Below, one piece after another: positions 1 to 31,729 of a stretch of 32,129 nucleotides of DNA. This DNA is from a virus. Its lineage: Duplodnaviria > Caudoviricetes. Location of the stretch: IMG/VR virus record IMGVR_UViG_3300008007_000006, positions 1-32,129 of that record; one strand, 5' to 3'. Numbering within the stretch: position 1 is the first letter of the stretch; each line of letters begins with the position of its first letter. A program made the position numbers and the translations under genes. The notes below the pieces were generated by a model, which saw only the letters and a list, made by a program, of their open reading frames with translations, was not told the origin of the DNA and ran no database searches.

Positions 1-28
1 AAACTAAAAAATATTTTACGTTTTATAT
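1..28. repeat. 28-bp terminal direct repeat, copy 1 (likely circular assembly overlap)
   Basis: AAACTAAAAAATATTTTACGTTTTATAT at 1-28 is identical to 32102-32129. Confidence 0.9.
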
Positions 29-33
29 AAATA
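26..33 (+). promoter_or_regulatory. T4-late-type promoter motif TATAAATA upstream of the plus-strand operon
   Basis: TTTATATAAATACTAATGTAAA is nearly identical to TTTATATAAATAGTAATGTAAA at 31680-31701; followed by an AC-rich leader and AAGGAG RBS. Confidence 0.65.
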
Positions 34-70
34 CTAATGTAAATACAAAACAACTTAAAGGAGATTTACA

Positions 71-499
71 ATGGTTAAAACACCATATATGAAAAGCAAA
101 TGGTCTTCTGTTAATGATAGACAGAAAGCATATTTGATTCACAGAAAAGCTAAAGACGGTTATTTCAAGAAAGATATTGAAGATAGAATAATTGAACTTG
201 GAAGACAAAAAAAACTTCATGAATTAGTTGGAACCGAATTATGGAAACAACTTAATTCACAAGGTATGTATAACGAATCACACCCTGTAGGTAGACCAAA
301 AATATGGATGAAACTTTCAGACAAAACAAAAGCTTACAATATTGTTGATAAAGCTAAAAACGGTTTTTACAATGAAGAACTTTGTAAAAGGATTCTTGAT
401 ATTGAAAACAAAGGAAGAAGACCAGACCTAGTTGACTTAGACATATGGTCAATACTAACAACGTCTGGAACATACTATGACGACAAGGAAGGAGAATAA
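71..499 (+). CDS. Hypothetical protein made of two copies of a ~57-aa domain shared with the helicase C-terminus
   Basis: AAGGAG RBS; internal duplication W..KAY.I..KAK.G[YF][FY]..RI..LV..[LI]W..L...G. Confidence 0.8.
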   Translation: MVKTPYMKSKWSSVNDRQKAYLIHRKAKDGYFKKDIEDRIIELGRQKKLHELVGTELWKQLNSQGMYNESHPVGRPKIWMKLSDKTKAYNIVDKAKNGFYNEELCKRILDIENKGRRPDLVDLDIWSILTTSGTYYDDKEGE

Positions 500-501
500 C
501 A

Positions 502-729
502 GTGATTGTTAAAACATTAGAGTATGTAATAAACAATAGTCATTATCAGGGTGATGTTGAATATAAAAGCAAATTTCAGATGGAAAAAGAACATAGTTTA
601 GCATCAGACATTATATTGAAATGTTTTTTAAATGACGATAAAGTTGAACAAGAAGCTAGGAAGGTAGGACTGGAAAAAGCAAGAGACTCCGTCATACTCG
701 CCATTAGAGATAACATAGAAATAATTTAA
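502..729 (+). CDS. Hypothetical protein (75 aa)
   Basis: GTG start with GAAGGAG RBS; tightly packed in the operon. Confidence 0.7.
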   Translation: MIVKTLEYVINNSHYQGDVEYKSKFQMEKEHSLASDIILKCFLNDDKVEQEARKVGLEKARDSVILAIRDNIEII

Positions 730-741
730 GGATACTTTATA

Positions 742-1041
742 ATGAACAGAGAGAAATTAAAATTGCAAAGAATACCTACTATGGTTGAAAGTAATTCAGA
801 CGTTCAAACCTGTGTATTGGAAACTTTGAGGGACGCAGTAGTAACTATTGTTACTACTAATGGTGAAATTAGTGGAGTAATACAAACTAGCGATGCTTTC
901 ACAATACTTGTAGAGGTATCATCTGGTTCTAATAGGTTAGTATACAAAAGCCAAATTGTGTATATTTTATTTGAATCTGACGTGAAAAATGTTACTGAAC
1001 GAATAAAAATGAAAAAAATAAACAGAAAGAGTAAAGGTTGA
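742..1041 (+). CDS. hfq: Hfq-like (Sm/LSm fold) RNA chaperone
   Basis: VQTCVLETLRDAVVTIVTTNGEISGVIQTSDAFTILVEVSSGSNRLVYKSQIVYI aligns by eye with the Hfq core [56 protein letters not shown]; AAGGA RBS. Confidence 0.8.
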   Translation: MNREKLKLQRIPTMVESNSDVQTCVLETLRDAVVTIVTTNGEISGVIQTSDAFTILVEVSSGSNRLVYKSQIVYILFESDVKNVTERIKMKKINRKSKG

Positions 1042-1044
1042 AAT

Positions 1045-1560
1045 ATGTCAGATACCGAAAACGAAACACGGGTACCAAGTTGTGCCCGTTATTTTGATCC
1101 TAAAAATTACCCCGTTGTAGGTATTGATACTAAGGTCTCTAGACTTGAATCTATAGAAGTATACGAAATTATGAATATATTACCTGTAACTATAGAAGAG
1201 GCAGAACAGATAGCTACTAAAATATACAAAGTTAAATACCTAGCTTATAATAACTACTACGAAGAAGATTGTCAAGAAATTTTAAACTGTGGTTCTGAAG
1301 AATTAATGAGACATGATGTTATGTATAGAACAGACCAACATGGGAAATACATAGAAAAGATAAAAATACCACAAAATGACCTTAAACACAAAATATATAA
1401 CATACGCAAGTTGGCCGAAGAAGGATATTATGGTCCAAAAACATCAGAAAAGATATTGTGCATGGAAAGCGAAGAAATATATACCATGAAGATGTATGAA
1501 GAACTTAATACACGCGGTAAACGTAGGCTTAAGAAAAAGAAACGAAAGAAAAAGAAATGA
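1045..1560 (+). CDS. Hypothetical protein with two degenerate copies of the shared domain and a poly-Lys/Arg tail
   Basis: KIYNIRKLAEEGYY..KILCM..LNTRG and KIYKVKYLAYNNYY..EIL; ends RGKRRLKKKKRKKKK. Confidence 0.75.
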   Translation: MSDTENETRVPSCARYFDPKNYPVVGIDTKVSRLESIEVYEIMNILPVTIEEAEQIATKIYKVKYLAYNNYYEEDCQEILNCGSEELMRHDVMYRTDQHGKYIEKIKIPQNDLKHKIYNIRKLAEEGYYGPKTSEKILCMESEEIYTMKMYEELNTRGKRRLKKKKRKKKK

Positions 1561-1898
1561 AAGAAAGAATACTTTCAATCGCAGAAATGATTGACGCATA
1601 TAGAATAGCACCAAGAGCCATACTAATAGTGTATGGCTTTTTGGTTTGGGAAATTTATATTTGGTTTAAATCTCTTGAAACCATAGCAAAAATACAGTGT
1701 CAAGAAGATATATTTTTTAAACTAATACAGAATGGTATTGATGTTAACAAAGCATCTGAAATAGCTTGTGTGGTTATAGAAGTTGTTGGTGGACCTACAG
1801 CACAACAGACAACGTTCGTTACGGCCATTGTGGGACTCTCTACCGCTATTATAGGATTGTATCTTAATAGCGGTAGGAGGTGGGAAAAAAAGGGCTGA
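1557..1898 (+). CDS. Two-TM membrane protein (possibly holin-like)
   Basis: Hydrophobic segments AILIVYGFLVWEIYIWF and FVTAIVGLSTAIIGLY; ATGA overlap with the upstream gene. Confidence 0.7.
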   Translation: MKERILSIAEMIDAYRIAPRAILIVYGFLVWEIYIWFKSLETIAKIQCQEDIFFKLIQNGIDVNKASEIACVVIEVVGGPTAQQTTFVTAIVGLSTAIIGLYLNSGRRWEKKG

Positions 1899-1922
1899 GA
1901 ACCTTTTACAGCGCCCAGCCCT
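1885..1922 (-). terminator. Intrinsic terminator ending the minus-strand structural region and/or the sRNA
   Basis: AGGGCTG-N18-CAGCCCT followed by TTTTTT on the minus strand, between convergent operons. Confidence 0.6.
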
Positions 1923-1940
1923 CACACACACACACACACA
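1923..1940 (+). repeat. (CA)9 dinucleotide tract
   Basis: CACACACACACACACACA read directly from the sequence. Confidence 0.95.
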
Positions 1941-1985
1941 TAGTTAGGGCGCTGCCCAACTGTATTTATTGGAAGGTTACTTTAA

Positions 1986-3695
1986 TCAGTAATTTTTCCG
2001 GTGAATAAATCTTCCTAAATTCCCAACTCTCAAACTACCATCAGATGTTCTTCTTATATTAGGAGGATCGTTAACCCCACATCCTACTAAAATTTCAGTG
2101 ACCGAACAAACAGTTGGAAACTCAAAAAGATTCCATTCAAATTCAATATCAAGGTTTCCATCAAAATAGTCTGAAAAAGCTATTGCGGTGAAAAACCCGG
2201 AATCTCCTATTGAACTGTTGTAAACTGCACCAATGTCAGACGCTTCTATAATCGATGGATTACTTTGTGAAGACGTAAATTCTTTAACTTGCAAATTTGT
2301 AATATTTAAATTTGAAAATTTGTATCTGAAAGTGTTAGAACCATCGAAAGATATAATGTAATATCTTACTGCGTTGGCAGTAGGTAATGGTGCAGGTGTA
2401 AACGTAAGAATACTATCGCTTCCTTGATCAAAGTTGTTATAGTTGTTTATAGATAAAATGTTTCCGTTTCTTATAACATTTATTGTTATTCTAACAAAAT
2501 CGGCATTATAATTAACTGCGTCCGGTGTTTGTTGAATAAACATAGACGGTGTCAAAATATCTGTACCAAATTCAGCAGTAAAGACCTGTCTTCTAAATGG
2601 TGAATCATAAGCAACACCTCCCTCTGGAGTAACATCAGTATCATCTATTATTTGCTGATCATAAACTTTAGTAAAACCAGAAATGTCTTCAATACCCAAA
2701 TATGTTTGTGCAGATACAACAATAATGTCTCCATTTTCTGCCATAAGCCCACTAAAGTCAACAGTTTCACTGGCGGTAGTCAATAAAATGTTATCATCAC
2801 CAGAACGGTTGTAAAATCTGTTACCGGTATAACCAAAAAATATAGAACAAGGATCATCACTAGGAACAGATAAACTTGGAGTTGGTGTTGGGGTTACACT
2901 GCTTGTAGGTGTGGGGGTGGGAGTAATAGACGCAGACAAAGAAATTGTTGGCGTAACACTTGGAGTTGGTGTAGGTGTAGGCGTCGGCAAGTTTGGAGCA
3001 AAATCATTGCTGTAAATTTCAAAGTAATTTAATCTAAAATCAACAAGAGTGTCATAAAACATATAAGGTAAACCAGACTCATAGGTTCTAGTTTGAACGT
3101 CTAGTATTAAACTATCACCCTCAGAAATATTTAATGTGTATAGGAAATTCTCTCCGTAGATCTGGTTAAGCAAAATTTCGTTTGTTGGAACCCAAGGTCC
3201 AGAAACACTATCAACCTCAATCCCATTAGAATCCAATTGTATAAACTTTGCTCTAAAGTCGCTAAGTCTGGGAGTGGCATTGGCTATTAAAAGTCTTGTA
3301 TTAAAACCAGTTATGGTGCAATCTTGGTCAAAAGTGTATCTCCATTTCCTCATAGAAGTTTCTACCGTACTAGGGTTAGCAACTTGTATAACACTATAAG
3401 AGTCATCTCCAAGAATAGGATCAAATATAGTTAACAGCCTATCCGGGTTATTAATAGGGTCAATATCACTTAGTAGGAAAAAAGTATAAGGCGTCCCCGG
3501 AGGTGGCGAAGGGGTAGGAGTAGGAGATGGTGTAACACTCGGACTACTACTGGGTGTAGGTGTTGGTGTAGGTGTAGGTGGTATTTGAGATGTTGAAGGT
3601 GTTGGTGTTGGACTAACAGGAATCGCCGACGCTACTGGGTCGGCAAATATTCTTTTGGTGTTAGTCCTTTTTACCGGATTAGTTCTATTTGGCAT
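1986..3695 (-). CDS. Putative virion-associated protein with two Pro/Thr (PT)n linkers separating beta-rich domains
   Basis: PTPTPTPTPSS repeats near aa 28-68 and 235-277; last gene downstream of the tail spike. Confidence 0.7.
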   Translation of the reverse strand: MPNRTNPVKRTNTKRIFADPVASAIPVSPTPTPSTSQIPPTPTPTPTPSSSPSVTPSPTPTPSPPPGTPYTFFLLSDIDPINNPDRLLTIFDPILGDDSYSVIQVANPSTVETSMRKWRYTFDQDCTITGFNTRLLIANATPRLSDFRAKFIQLDSNGIEVDSVSGPWVPTNEILLNQIYGENFLYTLNISEGDSLILDVQTRTYESGLPYMFYDTLVDFRLNYFEIYSNDFAPNLPTPTPTPTPSVTPTISLSASITPTPTPTSSVTPTPTPSLSVPSDDPCSIFFGYTGNRFYNRSGDDNILLTTASETVDFSGLMAENGDIIVVSAQTYLGIEDISGFTKVYDQQIIDDTDVTPEGGVAYDSPFRRQVFTAEFGTDILTPSMFIQQTPDAVNYNADFVRITINVIRNGNILSINNYNNFDQGSDSILTFTPAPLPTANAVRYYIISFDGSNTFRYKFSNLNITNLQVKEFTSSQSNPSIIEASDIGAVYNSSIGDSGFFTAIAFSDYFDGNLDIEFEWNLFEFPTVCSVTEILVGCGVNDPPNIRRTSDGSLRVGNLGRFIHRKNY

Positions 3696-3696
3696 T

Positions 3697-3906
3697 TTAA
3701 GCCCTCAAATACTTAATAGTAGAAGATATGAAAGCTTTGTATTCTTTAAGAATACTTTCATCAACCTCTTCCAAAAATTCTTGGCCATTTTCATTTAATA
3801 CCATAATAGTGTTTGGAAGATTTTCTACATATTCTTGGTATCTCTTTTTCCTTGAGTCTTTATAGTACCTAAGCTCTTTGTTTTCATCATAATAAATTAT
3901 AAACAT
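3697..3906 (-). CDS. Small hypothetical protein (69 aa)
   Basis: TAAGGA RBS followed by CGCACACACAC-ATG; packed between spike and PT-protein genes. Confidence 0.7.
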   Translation of the reverse strand: MFIIYYDENKELRYYKDSRKKRYQEYVENLPNTIMVLNENGQEFLEEVDESILKEYKAFISSTIKYLRA

Positions 3907-3920
3907 GTGTGTGTGCGTCC

Positions 3921-6900
3921 TTATTGTTTGTTATTCAAAATCTGAATTGCGTTAGACAATGGTTGTACATTGACGTTGTTTGTATTTAAGTAATCAACTA
4001 TTGCAGAAAAATCTGTTTCCAACCAGTCTTGACCATCTACCAAAGTAGATACCAAGGTATGAAAATTCAATATAAGCCACTGGTTGTTTGCTACAGCATC
4101 ATCAATCCAACCTTTTACTTGGGCCTGTGTAGTAAACTTGTCAATGGACTGCCTGTTGATGTTGTAAGGAGATATGTAGGTCTGACCATTTGCCCATCCG
4201 TTTATATTAGAAGCGTGAGAAAAGTTTCTTCTAACTTCTTTAATTATATTGTCACTAAATGCACCGTTGGGGTAAGAATAGTGATCCGAACCACGAAAAC
4301 CTCTTTCTAACAAATAGTTTCTTGTAGATCTTAAGTGATCTTCAAGTTCTGATTGAGTAAGGTTGTTAAGGTTACCAATATGATGACCACCAATGTCCCA
4401 TCCCACTTTGTCAAGATCGAACAGCTCTTCTTCTGTTAGGTAACCAGAGTTTCCAATTTCTTCAGGATCGATTAAGGCCGTGCCGGCATACATATATTTG
4501 TCCATATATTCCTTACCGATAATAACATCATCATATCCATCATCAAAAGTGATTGTAACAATGTGTCCCGTGGTGCTGTCAGGTATAGTTGCTATTGAGT
4601 CCAGATGAACCGTTACTCTGTTATTACCATTATCTTGCACCCTTAACAACATTTGTTTTATTGCTGAAAGGTTTGGAGAGCCATCGACAGGAAGATCATC
4701 AACATCTACTACAACTTCTATCCATTCATTGTCTGGTGGGTTTACTAGTCTAGTACCCAAATCAATATTCACAGAATCTGCGAAAGTCCATTCAGAAGAT
4801 GATATTTTCAAAACGACAGCACTTACATCAGCCCAATCATCACATTTAACAAAAAGTCTCAACAAAGATTCACTAATATCCACCGTAGGGCTTAATATTG
4901 GCGTAGAAATACCAGCATTACTGTTTCCAGATTGGGTAGTTACAGTTACTGATCCAGTCTGTGTTACGTGATCATTACTTGTTCCACCATCTCCAGCAGC
5001 GTACCAATCATCCCAACCGCTTTCTGTAGAATATATGTAGCTGCCCCTCGCCCTAGGAAGAGTTACAGTAGGTCTAGAATTTGTATACTTTTGCAGATCA
5101 CTAATATCTTGTTCTACAATTGCCCTGTTTATCCACTCTGAGCCAGTGCCTTCGTAAAAAAAGGCATGGCCGTCAGATGGAGTATTAATGTTAACGTCTG
5201 AAAGTTCATTTATATTTTCTCCTGTAATGTTTGAAATAAAACCAGAAATGCTATTATCGAACAATGATAAGTCATTTTCAACTACAAAGTCAACATTATT
5301 ATTCAAATCATCGTATGTTACTGTAATAAGACTTTGGTTTCCATTCAAAACATTCCAAGCGGCATCTTGTATTTCTTCCTCAGTTTGATCTGCGGTTGAA
5401 CCATCTTCTACGTTAATATGGCTTCTAAGGGAAACAGCATTTATCCCCAAAGATATGTTGCCAGAACTTGTAACAGGCGAACCAGAATCTATTTCTATAC
5501 CGTCACTACCCGAGATTCCAACAGAAGTTACCGTTCCTGTGTTTGTAGTATATCCTTTACTTTCTATATGATCATCTATTGCTGCAGCAGTCATTAGTTG
5601 TGTATCAGAATCTATAAAAGATTCGATACTAGTCAACACAGAACCAGCCTGTATGTCTGAAAAAGACACATCAGTTAAAAATCCAGAAGAGCTATTGTCA
5701 AATAAAGATAGATCGTCGTTTACAATAAAGTCAACGTTTTCGTTAGCATCATCATAAGTTACCGTTATAAGAGTTTGTGTTCCGGTCAAAACATCCCAAG
5801 CAAAATCCTGTACCTCTTCTTTTGTCAAAGAGCCCCCGGAAGTTGCAGCGTCAAATGTTATAGTATCTGAAGAAGCATTAGTGCTTATAGTCATGTTGGT
5901 ACCAGCAACTAATGTCAATGTGTCGGAAGTTGTATCTGCAACAACATCACTCTGTCCAGATACTGATATTGTACCAAAAGCTTGTCCACCACCACCAGAT
6001 GAACTGATTGTAATAGAATCTGTACTCGAATCTGTAGTTAATGTTATATTGCTTCCAGCCACAAGAGTTAAAGTATCATTAGAACTGTCTGCTACGACGT
6101 TGTCCTGCCCGGATATAGATATGGTATTAAAGATGTTTGGGGTGTTTGTGAAATTGTTGTAGTCTAAGAAATATGCTGGTATGTTTCCATCTAACGTTTC
6201 AGAATCTATACCAAGAGCGTCTACAAAAGCTTTGTCCACTCTAATGTCAATGTCAGAATTTGTCCTTGCAGTTGTGTAATATAGGTTAGAAGCTTCTGTA
6301 ACGTCGTCAGTGTCTAAAGTTACAGATCCGGTTTTACCCGATACAGAATCTACGGCGTTAACCTCGGCACCAGCAGAAATACCATCAAGTTTAGTCTTGT
6401 CTGAAGAAGACAATAAACCTGAGTCTGTAGTTGTTGCAGAAGCAATAATAGTGTTACTACCACCAGTGTTGGTTATCTCTATAGTGTCAGGAAGAACGGT
6501 CTGACCCAAATCTACAACAGTCAAATATGATTGTAGATCACTTATTTGTGATTCTGTAATTTCTATTGAAGAATAGACCGAGTTGGATTTGTATCCTGTC
6601 CAGTTGTCTGATCCATGATAAACAAGTTCTATTGACTCTTTCGGGTTAAGAGTAACGTTATTTGCCGTACTATTAGCTTCCGATAAAGTAACACCAGAAG
6701 CGCCTGAAAGCGTCAACACGCCAGTTGAAGATGTATTTCTTATGATGATACTATTAGACGTATCAAACTCGTTGTCTGTGCCCTGAGCAACTGCAACTTG
6801 AGTTGGAATAGTAACAGTGTAATTGTTATCGGTTCTAAGTTCTAGAACTTTGGAAACATCCTGTATTCTAACAGTATATGCTCCGGTAATTTCTCCTATC

Positions 6901-8093
6901 AATCTTTCGTCTGTGTAAATCACTGCACTATCAAAATCTATTTGTACTGTAGGTTGTCTCGGAAAAGAGTTTGAGTATATTACGTTATCTCCGTCACCAA
7001 CAAGATAAATATCATTCTCAATAGCACCGTAGGAGTGAACGCCGTCAATTATAGTATTGGTAACATTGTTAGTCAAAATATTATTGGTGTTATTAAAAAA
7101 TGATCCACTGATTCTCATATTTTTGGAATCAGTTGTAGCATAAAAACCTCTAAAGTTCCCATAACTGATCAAATCCCAAGAAACATCTTCACAACCAAAT
7201 TGAGCAAATCCTCCGTTAAAACCGTTTCCGTATGTTACGGCAGAAACACTACCATATCTTGTATTTGTTAAAATAATACCATGAAAACCATTTTCGTATG
7301 AAATGGTGTTTTGGATTTTAAAATTTGTTGAAGCATCTAGGTGAATACCAGATGCATCACCGAGATACGCAACTTCGGAGTTAAAAGGTCCATTGTCGTG
7401 TGCTAATAGATTGTTAACAAATATATTATCACAAAACCCTAGATATATTCCTTCAATACCACCTTTAATTATCTGTAGATTTTCTAAAAGTATATTTGTG
7501 ACACGTTGCATTTCTATGCATACGGAACCATCATTGGGATCGTTGAATCCAATGTCGTTACCGTCAATAGTCATGTTAGATATTTTTATATTGGAATTAC
7601 CGTTATTAAAGTCAGTGTTTCTGAACATTTTTATAGAAACGTCTGCATCATTTGTAGCTCTAACAATAGAGGTGAACATATTACCACCGAATATTACTAC
7701 ATTGTCAGGCAACGTTACAGAATTTTTTATTGTAACAGTAGTGTTAGCGGGTATAAAAGCAATAAGTTGGTTGTTGGCAGCATAATTTACCCATTGCTGT
7801 ACAGCAGCAGTATCATCCGATACCCCAAGATTATCCTTAAAATCTTTAATGTTAGTAAAAGTACCACTTCTTGGAACCCAATCGGAACCGTCCCATGCGA
7901 TAATATCATCAATATCTGGAGAATCTACGGTGATTCCGTCTGTATTAACACCAGAAAGTATTTCGTCTCTCAACTGACTGAAAGTTATACTATGTGAGTC
8001 TTCGGGTGAAAGTCTTTCAACCTCAAAAACCTCAGCGCCTGTCAATGGAAGATCTATCGATGGTAAATCTTGTATTCTTTTAAATGTTGACAT
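3921..8093 (-). CDS. Tail spike/fibre: N-proximal right-handed beta-helix (pectin-lyase-like), repeated shaft, C-terminal NodB/CE4 polysaccharide deacetylase
   Basis: GVSDDTAAVQ start of a pectate-lyase-3-like region and N/G-rich rungs; C-terminal TITFDDG, GWDIGGHH, YSYPNG, LILNFH motifs; position after gpJ. Confidence 0.8.
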   Translation of the reverse strand: MSTFKRIQDLPSIDLPLTGAEVFEVERLSPEDSHSITFSQLRDEILSGVNTDGITVDSPDIDDIIAWDGSDWVPRSGTFTNIKDFKDNLGVSDDTAAVQQWVNYAANNQLIAFIPANTTVTIKNSVTLPDNVVIFGGNMFTSIVRATNDADVSIKMFRNTDFNNGNSNIKISNMTIDGNDIGFNDPNDGSVCIEMQRVTNILLENLQIIKGGIEGIYLGFCDNIFVNNLLAHDNGPFNSEVAYLGDASGIHLDASTNFKIQNTISYENGFHGIILTNTRYGSVSAVTYGNGFNGGFAQFGCEDVSWDLISYGNFRGFYATTDSKNMRISGSFFNNTNNILTNNVTNTIIDGVHSYGAIENDIYLVGDGDNVIYSNSFPRQPTVQIDFDSAVIYTDERLIGEITGAYTVRIQDVSKVLELRTDNNYTVTIPTQVAVAQGTDNEFDTSNSIIIRNTSSTGVLTLSGASGVTLSEANSTANNVTLNPKESIELVYHGSDNWTGYKSNSVYSSIEITESQISDLQSYLTVVDLGQTVLPDTIEITNTGGSNTIIASATTTDSGLLSSSDKTKLDGISAGAEVNAVDSVSGKTGSVTLDTDDVTEASNLYYTTARTNSDIDIRVDKAFVDALGIDSETLDGNIPAYFLDYNNFTNTPNIFNTISISGQDNVVADSSNDTLTLVAGSNITLTTDSSTDSITISSSGGGGQAFGTISVSGQSDVVADTTSDTLTLVAGTNMTISTNASSDTITFDAATSGGSLTKEEVQDFAWDVLTGTQTLITVTYDDANENVDFIVNDDLSLFDNSSSGFLTDVSFSDIQAGSVLTSIESFIDSDTQLMTAAAIDDHIESKGYTTNTGTVTSVGISGSDGIEIDSGSPVTSSGNISLGINAVSLRSHINVEDGSTADQTEEEIQDAAWNVLNGNQSLITVTYDDLNNNVDFVVENDLSLFDNSISGFISNITGENINELSDVNINTPSDGHAFFYEGTGSEWINRAIVEQDISDLQKYTNSRPTVTLPRARGSYIYSTESGWDDWYAAGDGGTSNDHVTQTGSVTVTTQSGNSNAGISTPILSPTVDISESLLRLFVKCDDWADVSAVVLKISSSEWTFADSVNIDLGTRLVNPPDNEWIEVVVDVDDLPVDGSPNLSAIKQMLLRVQDNGNNRVTVHLDSIATIPDSTTGHIVTITFDDGYDDVIIGKEYMDKYMYAGTALIDPEEIGNSGYLTEEELFDLDKVGWDIGGHHIGNLNNLTQSELEDHLRSTRNYLLERGFRGSDHYSYPNGAFSDNIIKEVRRNFSHASNINGWANGQTYISPYNINRQSIDKFTTQAQVKGWIDDAVANNQWLILNFHTLVSTLVDGQDWLETDFSAIVDYLNTNNVNVQPLSNAIQILNNKQ

Positions 8094-12616: not shown

Positions 12617-13330
12617 TTAATATTGTTCATATATCGGGTTAGGACTGATAGGAGGAGCACTACCACCACCGGGACCACCGGGATCTGGGGGAGAATCGTA
12701 TGTAGATAATTGCTCTATAGTTACCCCAGTACTTAAGACTACAGAACCAGTTCGACAGAAACCGTAACACAGAGGAACTGGATGACCCTGTTCTGTAGTA
12801 TTAACGGCTCTACTAAACAAAAAACTAGGTGTTGAATCTGCTTGTTCTCTTATCTGCGGAGAGGAAGGAGGAAATAATCCACCTATCGTAAGACTTATTC
12901 CTGCTCCTATTAATGCACCACCAACAGCAGAACCAACTGCACCAGTCAAAGCTGCAGAACCGAACAAAAATGCTGCACCGCCTCCGGTAAAGACCGTCAA
13001 GGCAATTCCACCTGCAATTAGAGCTATGCCTCCTATAATCTGTCCAACCCTACCAGATCCTTCTACAGAAGGTATAAGGTGAACTTCATTAGAAGAACCC
13101 ATATTCCAATCTAATGTTTGTTCCGTAAGAAAATGGTCACCGTCTTTTTGTTTTATCTTAACAAGCCATTCATTTTCTCTTATATGTCTTTTAATCTTAT
13201 GACCATAATTGGAAATAAGACCAGAAACCAAAGTTCTAATATCGTTACCAGAAATTACAACTGTATCGTTTCCTCCGCACATTTGCTTTAGTTTGCCATA
13301 GAGATGTATTGTTCTTCTTTTATGTTGCAT
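12617..13330 (-). CDS. Tail assembly protein (lambda gpI-like)
   Basis: TIHLYGKL, VHLIPSVEGSG, Gly/Ala hydrophobic stretch, NTTEQGHPVPLCYG. Confidence 0.9.
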   Translation of the reverse strand: MQHKRRTIHLYGKLKQMCGGNDTVVISGNDIRTLVSGLISNYGHKIKRHIRENEWLVKIKQKDGDHFLTEQTLDWNMGSSNEVHLIPSVEGSGRVGQIIGGIALIAGGIALTVFTGGGAAFLFGSAALTGAVGSAVGGALIGAGISLTIGGLFPPSSPQIREQADSTPSFLFSRAVNTTEQGHPVPLCYGFCRTGSVVLSTGVTIEQLSTYDSPPDPGGPGGGSAPPISPNPIYEQY

Positions 13331-14063
13331 GGTTTTTAACTTCCTTGTGTCTTAAAAATTTTGTCATCGAGTTTCTCCATCTTGAAAAACTATATTCTTG
13401 GGATAGTCTTTTATCCATATGCTGTAATATCTTGTTGTCTCCGATATATACAGCACCATGGTTGTTTTCTGTCGAAGAAATGCTTATCAGTATCATGTCA
13501 CCATACCTAAGTTCATCTTCGGAAACCTCAAAAAACCCTGCCGACTGGTAATATTTATCATATAAGTTAACTCCACCATCGTTCCACCACATGTATTCTC
13601 TTGGAACACTCATAAGTTCTATACCAAATTTCTGCCAATAGAAGGATTGTATTATGGTGTAACAATCATAAACTCCATGAATATAAGGTCTACCAATAAG
13701 TGGATGATCATTGTCAGGAAAAACAACAATATCGCTACAATTCTCACCATCACTACTTAATATACCAAATGGTATTTGTAATGAGTCTTGAGTTTGCATG
13801 TCTTTTAAACTTGGTGTTCTTGGGTCAACATTACTTCTGTATTTCAAAGAAAGTTGATTGGAAGTATGTGAATGTATCAAAATATCCGGAATATTTTGGT
13901 TAAATTTGATGGGGTCAATACGAAAATGTTCTACTGGATTTTCATGAATGTTTTCATAATATATTATATTTTGGTTCTTTATACCAAGAACAGCTTCTTC
14001 AGGATATTTCTTTAAGACGTAAGCACAAATATCTTCTTTTAATACATCTAAATTGTATTTCAT
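13320..14063 (-). CDS. Tail tip assembly protein (lambda gpK-like; Mov34/JAB + NlpC/P60)
   Basis: YPEEA, HSHT..PSLKD JAB motif; GRPYIHGVYDCY..NHGAVYIGD..ILQH NlpC motif. Confidence 0.92.
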   Translation of the reverse strand: MKYNLDVLKEDICAYVLKKYPEEAVLGIKNQNIIYYENIHENPVEHFRIDPIKFNQNIPDILIHSHTSNQLSLKYRSNVDPRTPSLKDMQTQDSLQIPFGILSSDGENCSDIVVFPDNDHPLIGRPYIHGVYDCYTIIQSFYWQKFGIELMSVPREYMWWNDGGVNLYDKYYQSAGFFEVSEDELRYGDMILISISSTENNHGAVYIGDNKILQHMDKRLSQEYSFSRWRNSMTKFLRHKEVKNHAT

Positions 14064-14095
14064 CGTACCTTATGTTTATGTGTGTGTTGTAATAA

Positions 14096-17137: not shown

Positions 17138-17527
17138 TTAGTTCTCTTTATGTTGTTTGTAACACTTGTAGTAAGTCGCGTCCCATTCTAAAATCTGACG
17201 AACTTCCCATTTATTTATTTGATAGTTCATAAGCTCTTTGTAGCTTCTTATGTCTGTATGATTAATAGGATGTTCCAAAGACTTAGTATTACGTAATTCC
17301 CAAAACGCGTACCAAACGTTTTGCAATATAAATGGTGGGTTAGTCTCCAATTCGGAAAACTCTTTTCTCTTTTGATCTACGATCTTCTTGAAATTTTCAT
17401 CAAGTTTATCATACATCGATTCTAATTTTTTAAAATGGTTGTAGACTGAGGTACTTCCCTCAGTCTTAGCAGCTTTTACCTGTAATTCTATTATTGAAAT
17501 TAGTCTGTCTTTCCATTCAAAAAAAAA
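17138..17527 (-). CDS. Tail assembly chaperone extension (gpT-like), reached by -1 frameshift from the upstream chaperone
   Basis: The -1 frame is open from the T9 run (FEWKDRLISIIELQVK...) into MYDKL...; contains VWYAFWEL..I..TDIRSY. Confidence 0.75.
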   Translation of the reverse strand, partial: FFFEWKDRLISIIELQVKAAKTEGSTSVYNHFKKLESMYDKLDENFKKIVDQKRKEFSELETNPPFILQNVWYAFWELRNTKSLEHPINHTDIRSYKELMNYQINKWEVRQILEWDATYYKCYKQHKEN

Positions 17528-17961
17528 GCACTATCATCCTTCATTTTTTGATAAATGGCCATTTTTATCCAAGAATAGTTGGAATCCATCAACATTTCAA
17601 CCAGTTTTTCTCTATTAAATGGTTCTCCAAACTCTTCTGACCAGTCCTCTACAACTGCCGCAATTTCTCTGGCTTCCCACTTAGTAGTGTTCTTCATAAA
17701 GTCTAACCATTCTTGGTCAGTCATAGATGTAAAATCTTTTACATTATCAGGACCAATCTCTTTTTCAATTTCTTTCTTAAACTGATCCGGAGCTTCACGT
17801 AGTTTTTGAGCATTTATAATTGTCAAACGGTCAACATAGGTCTGACTTGTAGGAGGGATGAGTGTTAATGTAGCACCAGTGTCACCTATAGTAGGATGTA
17901 CTAGTTTCAAAATACAATTAGAAGGTTCTGTAAGATCAAAAAAATTCTTTTTGTTGTTCAT
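17500..17961 (-). CDS. Tail assembly chaperone (gpG-like)
   Basis: Lies between tail tube and TMP; LVHPTIGDTG motif; slippery T9 near the 3' end. Confidence 0.8.
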   Translation of the reverse strand: MNNKKNFFDLTEPSNCILKLVHPTIGDTGATLTLIPPTSQTYVDRLTIINAQKLREAPDQFKKEIEKEIGPDNVKDFTSMTDQEWLDFMKNTTKWEAREIAAVVEDWSEEFGEPFNREKLVEMLMDSNYSWIKMAIYQKMKDDSAFFLNGKTD

Positions 17962-17989
17962 GTGTGTTTTCCTTTTGTGTGTTTGTGTA

Positions 17990-20749: not shown

Positions 20750-21028
20750 TTAGCAATCATCTGATTCTGTATTATTTCTCTTTTTAGAAACTTTCTTTTT
20801 GAGAACTTTCTTCTTTCCCATATCTTTGTTTGGTCTTTCTTCTTCAGAATCAGGTGTGTTTTCTTTAAGATTTGCAAGAGCATTTGCATTTTCCCCCAAA
20901 AACTTTTTCTGTTTAACTAGTTTTTTCTTTCTCTTGGCCTTTTTAAGTTCGTTAGCATACAATGCTCGAAGTTTTATATCTTCAGTCTTTTGAATTAATG
21001 CTTCATAATATCCAGTCATATCGCTCAT
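20750..21028 (-). CDS. Small Lys-rich hypothetical protein after the major capsid gene
   Basis: GAGG RBS; own promoter motif; highly basic segments. Confidence 0.7.
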   Translation of the reverse strand: MSDMTGYYEALIQKTEDIKLRALYANELKKAKRKKKLVKQKKFLGENANALANLKENTPDSEEERPNKDMGKKKVLKKKVSKKRNNTESDDC

Positions 21029-21054
21029 ATTAATATCCTCTGTTGTGTGTTTGT

Positions 21055-22184: not shown

Positions 22185-22871
22185 TTACTTACGCTTGGCA
22201 GCACGTCTCATGGCTTCTGTCAGACTGTAGTTTGGATCGGTTGGATCAAGACTAAAATCTAACTTACCATTAGTCGGTCTGGTTCCAGAGCCAGAAGCTC
22301 CGGTTCCTTCAAAGCATCGAGAATAAATCTCATCAGCTTTAAGTTCTTTCACCAAGTCTTCAACAGTTGCCTCATTACCGTCAATAAAATAAGGCTTACC
22401 GTCCTTCGAAAGAACTTCAATTTGTACATCACCGTCATCGGTGACTGTGTCTTTCAATCTGTTCCTGATCACAGGCTTTAACAATTCCGAAACACCCTTG
22501 TGTTTTGCTACAGAATCCGTAATCAAAGATTCTATCTTTGATTCTCTGTACTTGTTAACAAAAGAGTTAAGCTTATCTCTTTCTTTTTGTACTTCAGCCT
22601 CCAAGGATTTACGAAGTTCTTCTACCTTTTCGTCTGAAGAATTATCTTTCTTAGCTCTCTCTAGTTCCTGTTTTAGATTTTCAACGCTTGATGCTTTAGA
22701 TCTAAGATCTTCAACGTCAATTCCCTCAAACTTTTTAACAGACTCCTTTAGGGTCTTAAGCTCTCCTAGCAATTCATCACGCTTTGAAACCAAAGGCTGT
22801 TTGTATGACTCTAGTAGTGCTTTACCATCTTCAGTTTCTTCAAGAAACTTCTTTACTTCTTCTAAATTCAT
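22185..22871 (-). CDS. Capsid scaffolding protein
   Basis: Charged coiled coil with FEGTGASGSG C-terminal motif, between portal and capsid; AGGAG RBS. Confidence 0.82.
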   Translation of the reverse strand: MNLEEVKKFLEETEDGKALLESYKQPLVSKRDELLGELKTLKESVKKFEGIDVEDLRSKASSVENLKQELERAKKDNSSDEKVEELRKSLEAEVQKERDKLNSFVNKYRESKIESLITDSVAKHKGVSELLKPVIRNRLKDTVTDDGDVQIEVLSKDGKPYFIDGNEATVEDLVKELKADEIYSRCFEGTGASGSGTRPTNGKLDFSLDPTDPNYSLTEAMRRAAKRK

Positions 22872-22949
22872 TGTTTTCTCCTATATGTGTATATTTGTTG
22901 TTCAGGCGCTGCCTGTATTACTATTTAGCGATTCTAAAAAAAAAAATTA

Positions 22950-24374: not shown

Positions 24375-25697
24375 TTAATCAAAGAATGGCTTTTGTCTAA
24401 TTCCTTTAGATCTAATTGGATATAACTGATAAACCGTATATGAAGATGAGTCAAAAGGATGATCCAGATTACTGTGTTTATCCATCTTTCCACTCTTGTC
24501 GTATGTCAATCCAAGTAAAGACTCGACCAAATACTTACATTGTGGGTTAACAAAATATCTTCTTGTTCCATCTGCTGCACATACCAAAGCATTGAATGAA
24601 TTTATTCTGTCGTTCTGGGTAGGATTTGAATTATCACAAACGATTTTACCGACGGTTGAAAGTATCTGATGGTCTGTATTTTTAGACGAAGTTTTTCTGG
24701 CAGATCCCGTAGCGTCAGGATAAAAAATTATATTGCCCAGCCATTTTGAGTATTTGTTTTTTACAAGATTTGCCATTTTCTGCGTATTAGTGTTTGCTAC
24801 ATATAGCTCTTCGATAGCATGTAGTTCTTCAACACGACTTTTGAGTCTTCCATTTGGATAAAACTCTTGCTTGACATTTACCTGATGTATTACCATAGTA
24901 TACGGATTTACGTTAAAATCCACTCCTATCAACAATGGTTTAGATGGATCGAGTTTTATATCTGATCTGTTTAGAATTGTATCAAAGTCTGGTACAACTC
25001 TTCCAAATCCAGAATCTGGATCACAAAGAAACTCGGCCTTGTACTGTGAAGGTGACATTGATGATTTTAAAAACGCTATCATTTCTGGATTATTATTTGG
25101 TGTAGGTGAATCATGGACTGTTACTTTCCAAGATCTAAACCCCGGTGTATAATCTGGATGCCCCAATTGACCTTTTTCGTAGTATTTCCAAAGTATGTTG
25201 CTTCTGGTTCTTACGGTTCCTGCTAGTATCATTCTACCATTACGAGTAGAAAGCATTGGCTGTACTTTGTTTATTGAATCTTCGGATAAAGATTGTGCTT
25301 CGTCAAATATAGCTAAATCTGCTGTAGAACCGAGTGTAGCGTCAACATTTTCGAGACCAGAACATCTTATGGTTGAACCGTTTATTAGTTCGACATACAT
25401 ATCAGAACGGTTGATATTTTTTATAAGTGATTGAGGAAAAATAGGATCAGATCCTTCAAACATTACTTTCCATAGGTTGTACTTTACCTGTCTATGAGTA
25501 ACAGCAAAAACAAGTATGTCTTTCTTTTCTTCAAGTGCTTCTTTATAAACAATAGCCCTAAGTACTGTCGTCTTACCAGACTGTCTAGAATTTAGTAAGA
25601 CTCTTACCCTAGCCTTAGATAGTAATACTTCTACCTGATAGCCTGAGAGGTGTCTCAGGGTCTCTGTGGGGCTTAATAGTACGTTGTACCCATTCAT
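24375..25697 (-). CDS. terL: Terminase large subunit
   Basis: Walker A SRQSGKT, Walker B AIFDEA, nuclease IGVDFNVNP and DHPFDS. Confidence 0.93.
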   Translation of the reverse strand: MNGYNVLLSPTETLRHLSGYQVEVLLSKARVRVLLNSRQSGKTTVLRAIVYKEALEEKKDILVFAVTHRQVKYNLWKVMFEGSDPIFPQSLIKNINRSDMYVELINGSTIRCSGLENVDATLGSTADLAIFDEAQSLSEDSINKVQPMLSTRNGRMILAGTVRTRSNILWKYYEKGQLGHPDYTPGFRSWKVTVHDSPTPNNNPEMIAFLKSSMSPSQYKAEFLCDPDSGFGRVVPDFDTILNRSDIKLDPSKPLLIGVDFNVNPYTMVIHQVNVKQEFYPNGRLKSRVEELHAIEELYVANTNTQKMANLVKNKYSKWLGNIIFYPDATGSARKTSSKNTDHQILSTVGKIVCDNSNPTQNDRINSFNALVCAADGTRRYFVNPQCKYLVESLLGLTYDKSGKMDKHSNLDHPFDSSSYTVYQLYPIRSKGIRQKPFFD

Positions 25698-26152
25698 TAT
25701 CCAGAGTTTCCTGAATCCTCGGACTGTTCTAGATACTGTTTGTCAAGTTCTTCCGCCCTATCGAAAGCTTCTTTTGTAATAATAATTCTAGGTATATCAC
25801 TAGGTGTTTCAGAAATATCCTGTATCTGTTTTGGCATAGATTGTTCCGCTAAAAACTTCACTATAGATACAAGATCTTTTGCAGATAGTTCTTTGTTAGA
25901 CAATTCTTTTATTATTCTAGGCAGACCTTTATTCTCCAATGCATCTAGACACATTGAGCGTACTCTAAGAATCTGTTGAGCATGATTAGAAGAAACTCCT
26001 CCTTTATTACCGGAGTATCCTTTTACAAACTTACCGTTTTTGTAACGTACTTGTCCAGATTCATTTTTGTATGCTATCTTTCCTTCATGAATAAAAGCGT
26101 CTACGGCCCATTGGGGCCATTCTTCTTCTAATGGTATTTGTATTTCTGGCAT
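25697..26152 (-). CDS. terS: Terminase small subunit (probable ATG start at 26152)
   Basis: GKFVKGYSGNKGG motif; directly upstream of and overlapping terL; GAGG 7 nt before the ATG. Confidence 0.72.
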   Translation of the reverse strand: MPEIQIPLEEEWPQWAVDAFIHEGKIAYKNESGQVRYKNGKFVKGYSGNKGGVSSNHAQQILRVRSMCLDALENKGLPRIIKELSNKELSAKDLVSIVKFLAEQSMPKQIQDISETPSDIPRIIITKEAFDRAEELDKQYLEQSEDSGNSG

Positions 26153-26205
26153 TTTCAATCCTCTAGTCGCTGACTGTTAGGGTTTTGTGTATGTGTGTAA
26201 TCTAT

Positions 26206-26884: not shown

Positions 26885-27358
26885 TTAAAAAGATATTATG
26901 TCTTCCGTAAAACTTTTTCTAGACTCAATAAGAACTTCTTTTTTATCAAAATCAGACTTTAGTTTTCTCTTTTTGTCCATTATCTTTTTCATCTTTGACG
27001 GTTCAGAAAATTTTTCTTCAGCATCTAGTTCTGCCCAATCTATAAAGTTTCCATCTATACCGGGTATTTTTTTCAGCATCCTATCAAGCTTCTTGGTTTG
27101 TGTTAATGTTGGGTCCAACATCATACAATCCTTTCTCTTGGAATGATAATTGAACATCTTTGGTATAAACTCAATCATTTCATCATCGTAACTGTTCCAA
27201 TTCAATGGGAAGCCATTGTTTATGATATGACTTATCAGTTGTATGTATTTCTTTTTAATTCGGTCTCTTTCTTCTTCGTTTAACACCAAGAACACATTCA
27301 TGTTATCTTGTTTTTTATTTTGTTTGCTGTAATATGCCTTGCTAATGTAAAGTTGCAT
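26885..27358 (-). CDS. Hypothetical protein in its own promoter-terminator unit (probable start MQLYI at 27358)
   Basis: GGAGAG RBS precedes the second ATG; TATAAATA at 27389-27396; terminator at 26824-26850. Confidence 0.7.
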   Translation of the reverse strand: MQLYISKAYYSKQNKKQDNMNVFLVLNEEERDRIKKKYIQLISHIINNGFPLNWNSYDDEMIEFIPKMFNYHSKRKDCMMLDPTLTQTKKLDRMLKKIPGIDGNFIDWAELDAEEKFSEPSKMKKIMDKKRKLKSDFDKKEVLIESRKSFTEDIISF

Positions 27359-27477
27359 CGTGTTTCTCTCCATTGTAAATTACCATATTATTTATAGTAA
27401 TTGTAATTTTTTACTAATAAATTTTTATTATTAAAAAAGAGAACTAAACTAGTTAGGTATTAGAAATTCAGAAACAT

Positions 27478-29470: not shown

Positions 29471-30886
29471 TTATGTTTGTTTAAAGCCACCATTAGTATT
29501 AAGCTTTTCCCATATTGACAATTTTACTATCTCGTGTTTCTTATCGTTCTTTACCATTGACAAAATTTTAGTGTTAACCATTGGCATGTAAAACCCTGCT
29601 TTTGCTTTCTTTATTATGTTGTTGGCCTTTACTCTTTCTGTTGTATTGGACCATAATTTCTTTCTACCTGTTGACTTATTATTTCTTGCTTCAAATTCTA
29701 CTTCTATTTTGTTTAGCTTTACATTGTTAAAAGAGCTAGAAAGCTTGCAGTATAGTAATTCTGCGGTTTTTTGATCTACACAATGTATACTAACAGGGTC
29801 TTTCGATTTTCTATCTCTTAGAGAGCATCTCATTACAGCTTGGTAAAAAACGTTGGCCGATACTCTATTGTCTGCATAACCAACACCGTAGGTATCTTCT
29901 ACATATTTTCTGTATGTTGTTTCAAAGTTTGTTGTTTTGGTAATAACTACATTACTCACATGTTGATAGGTGTTCAGAGAATGAGAATTTACAGGCAATT
30001 CTGTCCAGTTGTGTTCAAACAAACCGTATGACTTGTTGTTCAACAATAAAGTATCTGTATCTCCCGATTTTCTCTTTATGGTTTCTACTATAGTGTTATA
30101 GTCGTTATTGTATTTTTCCTTGAAGTACCTACTATTGTTCTCTTCCATATAGAAAGAAATTGTGACTGGTCTATCAGAAGTTTCAGTTTCTATATTGTCT
30201 ACCTTAACCTTCGGGCAGTGTAAAACTACAAACTCATGTATGTCTGCATCTTCACCTAACAATATTGCGTCAGATGGGAAATATGTGTTAGATGGTTCTA
30301 TAGCACAACTGTAAGATACTATACCAGTATTAGAACTAGTGTCCTTCTTGACCAATTTCAATTTCAATTTTCCAGATTCTATTCTAAGCATCACATCTAA
30401 AATACCTGAAACATAGGTCTTAATATTAGAAGTAGAATTTCTTGAAAGCTTTTTCAACAAATTAAGGTTTTTTGGTAAAAGGTAGCCTTCATTATTTTCA
30501 AAATAAGTGTTGATGAGGTTTAATTCATTGCTGTCAACTAGAGTTATTCCTGATACTAAAGGCAATGGGTCGTCTACTACAACCTGATGTGTCAAATACC
30601 TATTTGGTGGTATTTGTTCGAACATCTGTATTGTACAAACCACAACGTTCTTGGTTTCATCTTTTAGGTATCTCTGTAAAGTCTCTTTTACATTTGCCCC
30701 ACAATGATCACTGTCTATTGCAATAACAGATTTTTCTGTGTGTTTTTGTATTAAATCATGTATTTCTTTTACTGCTGGTTTAGAGGGACATACGTAAAGA
30801 ACAGGTCTTTCGATAAACCCAAGTCTGTTTTTTATGAACGATGTAGTTTTTCCAGAACCACATGAACCCTTGATTATCTGTATCAT
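29471..30886 (-). CDS. SF2-like P-loop helicase / putative replication initiator with C-terminal shared domain
   Basis: Walker A GSCGSGKT, motif Ia LYVCPS, Walker-B-like VVVDD, motif VI-like YQAVMRCSLR; adjacent to the putative origin. Confidence 0.72.
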   Translation of the reverse strand: MIQIIKGSCGSGKTTSFIKNRLGFIERPVLYVCPSKPAVKEIHDLIQKHTEKSVIAIDSDHCGANVKETLQRYLKDETKNVVVCTIQMFEQIPPNRYLTHQVVVDDPLPLVSGITLVDSNELNLINTYFENNEGYLLPKNLNLLKKLSRNSTSNIKTYVSGILDVMLRIESGKLKLKLVKKDTSSNTGIVSYSCAIEPSNTYFPSDAILLGEDADIHEFVVLHCPKVKVDNIETETSDRPVTISFYMEENNSRYFKEKYNNDYNTIVETIKRKSGDTDTLLLNNKSYGLFEHNWTELPVNSHSLNTYQHVSNVVITKTTNFETTYRKYVEDTYGVGYADNRVSANVFYQAVMRCSLRDRKSKDPVSIHCVDQKTAELLYCKLSSSFNNVKLNKIEVEFEARNNKSTGRKKLWSNTTERVKANNIIKKAKAGFYMPMVNTKILSMVKNDKKHEIVKLSIWEKLNTNGGFKQT

Positions 30887-30987: not shown

Positions 30988-31337
30988 TTTTACGGCATCT
31001 ATATTTTGATATTTGAGCAGTGGTCGCTTCGCTCCCTATTTGGTATAGCGACAATACCTGCGGTGCTATGGTTCTATATGTCGAAAGAAATAAAGAATCA
31101 ATTTTCCACTGAAGCGACAGCGAAGTGGAGTGACCGAAGGGAACCAGTTACTACATATTTGCTGGCTACGTATCCGGGTTTAAACCTCGTCTACTAAAGC
31201 CAGAGTGATCCGTCTCCAAGGAGCCGAATCACTTCTTTTTCTCTTTGTTTTTTGTTGCATGTAAAATTCTGTAAGTCATTGAAAATACTGGAAATATTAT
31301 TTTACGTTTTGATCTTAATAGTATAGATGCCGTAAAA
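30988..31337. other. Putative replication origin bracketed by 16-bp perfect inverted repeats
   Basis: TTTTACGGCATCTATA (30988-31003) / TATAGATGCCGTAAAA (31322-31337); internal CGCTTCGCT/GAAGCG motifs, hairpins and an IHF-like site at 31272-31284. Confidence 0.55.
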
Positions 31338-31352
31338 CCCCAATTTTGATAC

Positions 31353-31478
31353 AAAAAAAGCCCTACTTATGTAGGGCTTCGTTATACCAAAAGGCAACAT
31401 TCAAACGACTGTAGTCTCATAGGGCATGGGGTACCTCAACTACAGCTATTAAACGCAGGTCGAAAATTATCATTCAAC
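31353..31478 (-). ncRNA. Putative ~126-nt small RNA
   Basis: TATAAATA at 31484-31491 (-); 9-bp internal stem 31438-31446/31408-31416; terminator AAGCCCTAC-ATAA-GTAGGGCTT-T5; no RBS-led ORF. Confidence 0.6.
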
Positions 31479-31521
31479 ACTACTATTTATATCAATTTGA
31501 AATTAATAGAAAACTATTTGT

Positions 31522-31622
31522 AAAAAAAAAGCCCCGGATAAACCGGGGCGGATTTGCTTGGAGTTAATGTCTAAATGTCTATAGTAGTCTTTAGAAGACC
31601 GGCGTAGAACATTGCGTTCTAC
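31522..31622 (-). ncRNA. Putative ~101-nt small RNA
   Basis: TATAAATA at 31628-31635 (-); 5' hairpin GTAGAAC/GTTCTAC at the predicted +1; terminator GCCCCGG-TTTAT-CCGGGGC-T9. Confidence 0.65.
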
Positions 31623-31651
31623 ATTTCTATTTATACAGTTTGACAAAAAAC

Positions 31652-31680
31652 TTGACAAAAAACATTTTTTACTTTATACT
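31652..31680 (+). promoter_or_regulatory. Sigma70-type promoter TTGACA-N17-TATACT
   Basis: TTGACA 31652-31657 and TATACT 31675-31680; second TTGACA at 31640-31645; TATAAATA at 31684-31691. Confidence 0.8.
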
Positions 31681-31729
31681 TTATATAAATAGTAATGTAA
31701 ACAAACACACACAATAAAGGAGTTTAACA

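Follow-up and report, generated by a model that had tools for sequence, protein, structure and literature searches.

What an Hfq-like protein does for a small tailed phage, and which RNAs it might serve, is the question raised by a gene at 742-1041 (plus strand) of the viral sequence IMGVR_UViG_3300008007_000006. A first-pass annotation had offered two answers, a chaperone dedicated to three U-tailed RNAs encoded nearby or a subunit that interferes with the Hfq rings of the host. The window, by which we mean the whole stretch of 32,129 nucleotides that was analysed, is a complete phage genome: it carries a 28-bp direct terminal repeat, was rated 100% complete, and is 32 kb long with 36% G+C and under 8% intergenic sequence. 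Profile scans identified leftward genes for terminase, portal, scaffold, capsid, connector, and lambda-like tail proteins. A 471-aa helicase-like gene (ORF 29471-30886) is leftward too, and a rightward run of six ORFs (31730, 71, 502, 742, 1045, and 1557) crosses the junction and contains hfq. The capsid and tail-tip proteins had matches of 30-34% identity scattered over many genera. Among the 33 ORFs, at the thresholds used, we recognised no integrase, repressor, sigma factor, DNA polymerase, primase, or endolysin; one weak polymerase-family match in the ORF scan sat on a collagen repeat. A large tail-associated protein (3921-8093) has a polysaccharide deacetylase domain at its end, and the gene after it (1986-3695) encodes a protein rich in Pro/Thr linkers without a family match. 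Thirteen of the 24 listed sequencing runs covered at least half of bases 1-3000, with six possible source runs left out. All thirteen were labelled aquifer or groundwater, 2017, and possibly belong to one campaign; none of those listed was an RNA run. Reads of 8 of the 24 runs contained no variants, in a comparison that covered the sequence outside the repeat at 1912-1951, which includes (UG)9.

The 99-aa product of ORF 742-1041 was identified as a real Hfq-like Sm protein, not a canonical Hfq. The frame is intact and preceded by an AAGGA ribosome-binding site, and it encodes a basic 14-aa N-terminal extension, an acidic Sm core (about 15-78), and a basic C-terminal tail predicted to be helical. 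The Pfam family PF17209 (Hfq) matched at 31.4 bits against a cut-off of 27 (E 1.5e-7), and the equivalog TIGR02383, which describes canonical Hfq, scored 25.1 bits against a cut-off of 61.7. A sequence-only PDB search returned Hfq for 6 of the 10 matches listed, with weak E-values. AlphaFold predicted a helix at 21-28 followed by five strands, with block-mean pLDDT of 87-95 over residues 21-80 and low confidence at both ends; this model is biased because its input, a 78-sequence alignment, was made of canonical Hfq. When the AlphaFold model was searched against the PDB with Foldseek, all 25 matches listed were Hfq (best TM 0.80 by target), and a separate Atlas model of the same sequence matched Hfq clusters at TM 0.68/0.64 and 0.66/0.74. 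The Sm fold, an N-terminal helix and five strands, is thus predicted by two models, of which the AlphaFold one is biased, and in these models it is common to the phage protein and to PDB Hfqs from Listeria (4nl2), Aquifex (5szd), Caulobacter (6gwk), and E. coli (3qhs). The Hfq identity proposed by the first-pass annotation therefore stood, on a PF17209 score over cut-off and on an Hfq fold in both models.

To compare RNA-binding surfaces, we aligned the phage protein with Hfq as encoded in the E. coli K-12 genome record and with 119 of 120 search matches (P0004, a 151-aa outlier, was left out). Identity to E. coli Hfq was about 24%. The five residues said to be retained were all in place (Q8 as Q22, D40 as D51, F42 as F53, Y55 as Y68, and K56 as K69), and R16, N28-G29, G34, and I59 are common to both proteins as well; the roles of D40 and Y55 are mainly structural. 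The three alterations that had been named were also seen in the alignment: the distal Y25 is V37, the NGIK segment (N28-G29-I30-K31) is shorter by one residue, and H57 is replaced by S70, so that the Sm2 motif reads YKSQ for YKHA. H57 and A58 were found in 120 of 120 references, which are mostly close gammaproteobacterial proteins and so not independent.

The broader description of a largely intact proximal face was only partly borne out. According to the accessible text of PMC10628458, the uridine pocket consists of Q8, an amine at position 41, F42, K56, and H57, the distal pocket for A-rich RNA consists of Y25, L26, N28, I30, Q52, and T61, and the annealing rate tracks the rim arginines. Three of the five uridine-pocket residues are kept (Q8, F42, and K56), but the position-41 amine (now A52) and H57 are lost, and D9 is T23. 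In the distal pocket N28 alone of the six residues is left (Y25V, L26T, I30 deleted, Q52R, T61Y), and one of the three rim arginines of the Gram-negative type survives, R16 being kept, R17 replaced by D31, and R19 deleted. The C-terminal tail is basic as claimed (residues 79-99, net +6 vs. -3 in the E. coli tail), but this holds only for the ends of the protein: the N-terminal 14 residues carry +3, and the core (15-78) has a net charge of -5 compared with +3 in E. coli. Neither the rim loss nor the acidic core had appeared in the earlier account. Change has fallen on the distal face and the rim and has spared Q8, F42, and K56, so we take the surviving RNA surface to be the U-binding side. The losses at the rim, at position 41, and at H57 argue against an annealing activity of the E. 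coli type.

These changes bear on the second of the two original proposals, that the protein joins host Hfq rings, spoils their distal face and rim, and either blunts host sRNA control or denies Hfq to a co-infecting T4-like phage. The fold and the strand-4/5 residues Y68, K69, and I72 are kept while the RNA faces have turned acidic, and a sigma-70-type site stands ahead of the hfq gene run, both of which agree with such a role. T4 borrows host Hfq as a neck plug, an interface reported to be absent in lambda and SPP1, and the E. coli Hfq residues that contact gp14 are K31, T49, Q33, S65, and R19 (PMC12929587, accessible text). All five differ in the phage protein (E42, G62, S44, E78, and a gap), although drift alone, at such divergence, would be expected to replace five surface residues. 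Moreover, about 24% identity to E. coli Hfq, which may not be the host's, makes matching subunit interfaces uncertain, and a poison would not need Q8, F42, and K56. We consider this reading unlikely.

The gene run suggests a different kind of function. ORF 71-499 repeats the C-terminal ~63 residues of the helicase-like protein twice in tandem (E 6e-12 and 1e-10) and might compete for, or aid, origin binding. By the helicase-like gene lies a perfect 16-bp inverted repeat (30988-31003 and 31322-31337), its arms 318 nt apart around a GC-richer stretch with small hairpin-like motifs, which is a candidate replication origin. Rather than serve as an sRNA chaperone, the Hfq-like protein could bind nucleic acid or act as a scaffold in replication or some other process of the phage. 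Its place in one gene run with ORF 71-499 and its acidic core with basic tails would suit this, as would the plasmid Hfq-like proteins fused to zinc fingers, which the accessible part of PMC3710371 describes as proposed DNA binders. Such a function seems improbable to us: the helicase-like gene lies on the opposite strand and its transcription leads away from hfq, the protein has retained U-pocket residues, and hfq is flanked by three genes for U-tailed RNAs. Elsewhere in the run, the product of ORF 31730-32101 has a lipobox-like signal (seen by eye) and matches phrog_914; a lipoprotein with an exclusion function is one possibility. Ahead of ORFs 71 and 31730, the promoter and leader segments (6-73 and 31659-31732) are 76% identical over 74 nt and, judged by this similarity, represent a duplicated expression cassette. 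A terminator-like hairpin at 1068-1089, 27 nt past the hfq stop and within ORF 1045, is of a kind expected by chance (1 found vs. 1.1 expected).

The three U-tailed RNA candidates lie where the first-pass annotation had placed them, on the minus strand and about 0.85-1.5 kb from hfq on the circle. RNA1 (31353-31478) is a predicted 126-nt, highly structured RNA with a U7 terminator. RNA2 (31522-31622) is a predicted 101-nt sRNA with a 5' hairpin, an open middle, and a U9 terminator. RNA3 (1885-1957) is a predicted 73-nt sRNA with a weak 5' hairpin, a (UG)9 seed at 1940-1923, a terminator hairpin, and a U7 tail. Each has an [A/T]ATAAATA box on the same strand, namely TATAAATA at 31484-31491 for RNA1, TATAAATA at 31628-31635 for RNA2, and AATAAATA at 1963-1970, the predicted RNA3 promoter, 5 nt before the G at 1957. 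In every case a G six bases on from the box opens a hairpin (31478, 31622, and 1957) and a terminator with 7-9 U closes the unit, so that all three possess their own promoter-like box, intrinsic terminator, and 3' U-tail. Three of the five strong hairpin-plus-U6 terminators of the genome close these RNAs. Fold stability relative to shuffled sequences was greatest for RNA1 (z -5.45, 0 of 200 shuffles as stable), followed by RNA2 (z -3.71, 1 of 200) and RNA3 (z -1.89). The three RNAs look like complete genes. Their closeness to hfq comes partly from layout, because two of them occupy the one large non-coding gap of the genome (843 nt).

An Rfam search gave no match for RNA1-3 at the curated score, and none of its three matches at E up to 1 was to GcvB; a SprX match at 31450-31578 (31 bits vs. 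a cut-off of 80) was rejected. RNA1 and RNA2 had no significant blastn match among deposited phages and no targets found in the genome, each with 0 of 34 leaders above background; duplex energies that ignored accessibility were discarded as uninformative for this search. The open middle of RNA2 is complementary to a Shine-Dalgarno sequence plus an AUG-UCU start, a complementarity that suggests targets outside the genome. The RNA3 terminator would also end the long leftward operon, and its read-through would yield RNA antisense to the rightward run with hfq. RNA3 has an alternative 8-bp helix (-15.5 vs. -26.1 kcal/mol), which overlaps the 5' arm of the terminator and would form first; the seed stays in a loop with either fold. 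A GGC-AGC-GCC hairpin starts RNA3 (1948-1954, minus strand) and recurs in the scaffold-gene leader (22905-22911, minus strand), and CAGCGCC has four copies with both strands counted.

Because the U-binding side of the protein survives and three U-tailed RNA genes are near, our preferred reading is a U-tail-binding chaperone for RNA1-3, to which we give a little less than an even chance. The RNAs could instead use host Hfq or none, with the phage hfq gene an unrelated passenger; no relative of the protein turned up in the collections searched, which left no sign of selection to measure, and we count this for the passenger explanation. In a variant of it, the active molecule would be the sense strand at the 3' end of the gene run, whose CA-rich sequence would act as a decoy for a host RNA like GcvB or for a protein that binds CA. 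A rightward transcript would cross (CA)9 at 1923-1940 and then a hairpin and U-rich stretch at about 1943-1969 (seen by eye), and the prophage anti-sRNA AgvB is a precedent for interference with host sRNAs (PMC12197685, accessible text). AgvB mimics GcvB targets. Taken jointly, the passenger explanation and its variant strike us as quite unlikely. The promoter box, start G, and U7 tail all put RNA3 on the minus strand, and the intact frame, the ribosome-binding site, and the selective retention of U-pocket and fold residues argue against a passenger.

RNA3 offered candidate targets that bear on the chaperone reading. Its (UG)9 middle is unpaired or weakly paired in the best folds, with an opening cost of about 1.4 kcal/mol for 16 nt. 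Outside RNA3, ACACACA has eight copies in the genome, seven of them in sense leaders no more than 45 nt before a start codon, and four of these seven end 15-17 nt before it. Such leaders make up 2.5% of the two strands; one copy lies in the leader of a 69-aa ORF (3697-3906) that was below the first length cut-off and was added once the motif was seen there, and without this ORF six of the eight copies are in leaders. The motif occurs in 6 of 34 leaders, whereas 5000 composition-preserving shuffles put it in 0.14 leaders on average and never in more than 3, and 11 other alternating heptamers have a single leader copy among them, apart from the overlapping CACACAC (3/3). When pairing with RNA3 was scored with the opening cost counted on the sRNA side, 6 of 34 leaders scored above every one of 90 coding windows. 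The strongest candidate target is a CA-repeat between the Shine-Dalgarno sequence and the start of the 69-aa ORF (3906-3915, minus strand). Further candidates are CA-repeats in the leaders of the predicted lipoprotein ORF 31730-32101 (31705-31713, plus strand), of ORF 25697-26158, a small terminase subunit by position (26192-26198, minus strand), and of the NlpC/P60 tail-tip gene 13320-14063 (14079-14087, minus strand). Two CA-repeats stand in the leader of ORF 17500-17961, a tail assembly chaperone by position (17961-17982, minus strand), and a CA/UA-rich stretch without an exact ACACACA precedes the Shine-Dalgarno sequence of the scaffold gene 22185-22871 (22880-22895, limits approximate, minus strand). 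A CA-repeat in the leader of ORF 20750-21028 (21044-21050, minus strand) is a weaker candidate.

This arrangement recalls GcvB, which silences ACA enhancers just upstream of Shine-Dalgarno sequences (PMC3879156, accessible text). RNA3 likewise has an open seed of G and U, complementary to the CA elements that shortly precede several Shine-Dalgarno sequences; unlike GcvB, it is 73 nt long with a pure (UG)9, has no Rfam match, and finds its candidate targets among the phage's own assembly genes. By analogy, RNA3 would work like GcvB without being a family member. The CA-rich leaders may also be plain translation enhancers, the (UG)9 may have arisen by slippage, and the 14-15-bp duplexes of RNA3 may need no chaperone. 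In fragments of a sister phage the promoter boxes are kept and ACACACA is absent from the leaders covered.

The boxes ahead of the RNAs belong to a genome-wide set. [T/A/C]ATAAATA boxes stand before many transcription units (e.g., at 26, 18983, 21060, 22115, 27389, 30953, and 31684), and of 24 ATAAATA sites 23 are in the sense of local genes or RNAs and 18 are intergenic. All nine copies of TATAAATA lie between genes and point into a gene or RNA; the evidence rests on this placement because the bare count is marginal (9 vs. 4.3 expected, with 3 of 100 shuffles reaching 9). The accessible parts of PMC1524935 and PMC2984593 place the same consensus at -13 to -6 of T4 late promoters and report that relatives have A or T at -13; these T4-type promoters (TATAAATA / NATAAATA) are read by gp55 with gp33 and gp45. 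The phage boxes share both consensus and spacing with this system: a NATAAATA box was found at -13 to -6 before genes, and with the T4 spacing applied a purine falls at +1 in 9 of 9 TATAAATA sites. The nearest predicted hfq promoter is the TATAAATA box before ORF 71-499 (26-33, plus strand). Farther upstream, a sigma-70-type site (TTGACA-17-TATACT, 11/12) followed by a TATAAATA box (31652-31691, plus strand) provides predicted promoters for the whole hfq-containing rightward run; sigma-70-like sites were at chance level both overall (5 found vs. 5.6 expected) and near hfq (8 vs. 10.6 expected).

Unlike T4, the phage has lambda-like tail genes, and gp55, gp33, clamp, and polymerase were not recognised in the 33 ORFs scanned. 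The gp55 profiles phrog_234 and phrog_12791 gave no match at E up to 10 in six frames of the genome. ORF 26885-27373, the best candidate and common to the sister phage, did not align with T4 gp55 (probability 0.8%), and its model was too poor to judge (mean pLDDT 51, no fold match); ORF 1045-1560, considered as an own sigma factor, gave no usable Atlas match. A very diverged sigma factor of the phage's own is possible, and the boxes would be read by the gp55 of a helper, by a factor of the phage that escaped recognition, or by a host sigma that shares their consensus. With promoters of the T4-late type but no gp55, polymerase, or endolysin among its recognised genes, the phage may depend on a helper. 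ORF 1557, the last gene of the hfq run, has its best relatives in jumbo phages (45% to XacN1), its relative on a 41-kb IMG/VR fragment (rated 12% complete) is preceded by TATAAATA, and the helicase-like gene has a weak match to jumbo phage Atu_ph07. The phage has all its own particle genes, and our literature search on T4-like helpers with satellites returned no relevant paper. An extended scenario, in which the phage parasitises a T4-like jumbo phage, is a long shot in our view: the helper's gp55 would fire the promoters, the phage's own Hfq-like ring would carry the three sRNAs, one of these would set assembly-protein dosage via the CA leaders and two would hit helper or host messages, and the acidic distal face could not serve as a neck plug. 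If a helper's sigma does read the T4-late promoters, T4-like phages would have in this tailed phage a parasite.

The chaperone reading can be assembled into a circuit. RNA1-3 would be transcribed from their own boxes; the Hfq-like protein, which likely forms a ring, would likely bind their U-rich 3' tails and so stabilise them. It might also help RNA3 pair with CA-repeats in the leaders of six or seven of the phage's genes, whose translation would fall as a result. RNA1 and RNA2 would target host or co-infecting-phage messages. As the rim arginines and distal pocket are gone, the role would be nearer that of a tail-binding stabiliser than of an E. coli-type matchmaker, with the basic ends of the protein perhaps replacing the missing rim charge. 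The original idea of a dedicated chaperone thus gains Hfq homology and fold, promoter boxes, terminators, and candidate targets for RNA3; the chaperone role itself we infer. Residue by residue, the loss of two of five uridine-pocket residues, including H57, argues against it, as do the survival of one rim arginine among three, the net -5 of the core, and a TIGR02383 score below cut-off. The protein is a natural test of whether Q8, F42, K56, and basic tails are enough to bind sRNA when rim arginines, H57, and the distal pocket are missing. The chaperone, candidate RNAs, and candidate targets share one complete 32-kb genome, so short parts would be enough to rebuild the circuit in a laboratory strain of E. 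coli.

The Hfq-like protein itself stood alone in the collections searched. Searches found only the query among 5.8 billion sequences (lengths 54-174 aa) and no relatives among deposited phages or GTDB genomes; one other match among 1.84 billion representatives was an 18-repeat low-complexity protein and was rejected. In IMG/VR it matched one contig of the same phage only. Queries with the helicase, terminase, ORF 1557, and ORF 71 recovered same-phage assemblies, one sister phage (69% terminase, in fragments of 5-9 kb that end before the hfq region), and distant terminases (44 of 50 loci, 25-31% identity), and no related contig found by these queries reached the hfq-RNA region. An Hfq profile run over six frames of the collected loci recovered known Hfq loci only, PF17209 found nothing in three fragmentary related records, and matches of 18-38 nt from other contigs were treated as chance. 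The statement that Hfq is uncommon in small phages held among deposited genomes, where 7 of 50,697 records match E. coli Hfq, two of them being Salmonella contigs and two more looking host-derived by their size; in IMG/VR, more canonical Hfqs do occur among phage genes. Eleven IMG/VR loci match E. coli Hfq, and the two that were checked both lie among phage genes; one Atlas Hfq cluster is 60% viral, and BFVD has mycobacteriophage 'Hfq-like' entries. Phage Hfq as such is not rare.

Comparison with known systems places the protein at some distance from each. Bacterial Hfq differs from it at the motif that reads YKSQ here, in the position-41 amine, the distal pocket, and the rim arginines lost here, in lacking its acidic core and basic N- and C-terminal extensions, and in the equivalog cut-off, below which this protein, encoded by a 32-kb phage, falls. 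The near-canonical IMG/VR Hfqs (L015 and the L016-L022 family) are located between phage genes as here (HNH, Erf, and exonuclease genes; terminase), but they keep YKHAI, score 72-86 bits on PF17209 (three scanned), and were missed with the phage protein as query. One of these is a 68-aa Hfq (L015:5995-6201, 85.5 bits) between HNH endonuclease genes on a 77-kb contig; in L016-L022 (e.g., L016:3032-3250) hfq is near a terminase gene, with YKHAI intact, Y25 changed to Ile/Phe, and the rim altered.

Hfq-like proteins of mobile elements are already known (PMC5348863; PMC3710371, both from the accessible text), and they share with the phage gene the status of an extra copy on a mobile element. The toxicity of overexpressed Hfq3, as described there, needs the distal face, which the phage protein has lost, and the zinc finger of the plasmid Hfq-like proteins is absent from it. 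The plasmid pXO1 also encodes sRNAs (PMC7843513, accessible text); in the accessible portions of these sources we found no mobile-element Hfq described with candidate sRNA clients aimed at the element's own genes. Our search, which left most subscription journals outside its scope, found no paper on a phage-encoded Hfq gene acting with phage sRNAs. The phage sRNAs VpdS (VP882) and PreS (lambda) bind Hfq, with no phage copy of Hfq mentioned in the accessible text of PMC12197685. They are trans-acting and phage-encoded, as RNA1-3 are predicted to be, and by our reading they probably use host Hfq, whereas here the phage brings an Hfq-like gene. What we did not find elsewhere is the combination of an Hfq-like gene, candidate sRNAs, and candidate targets in one complete phage genome.
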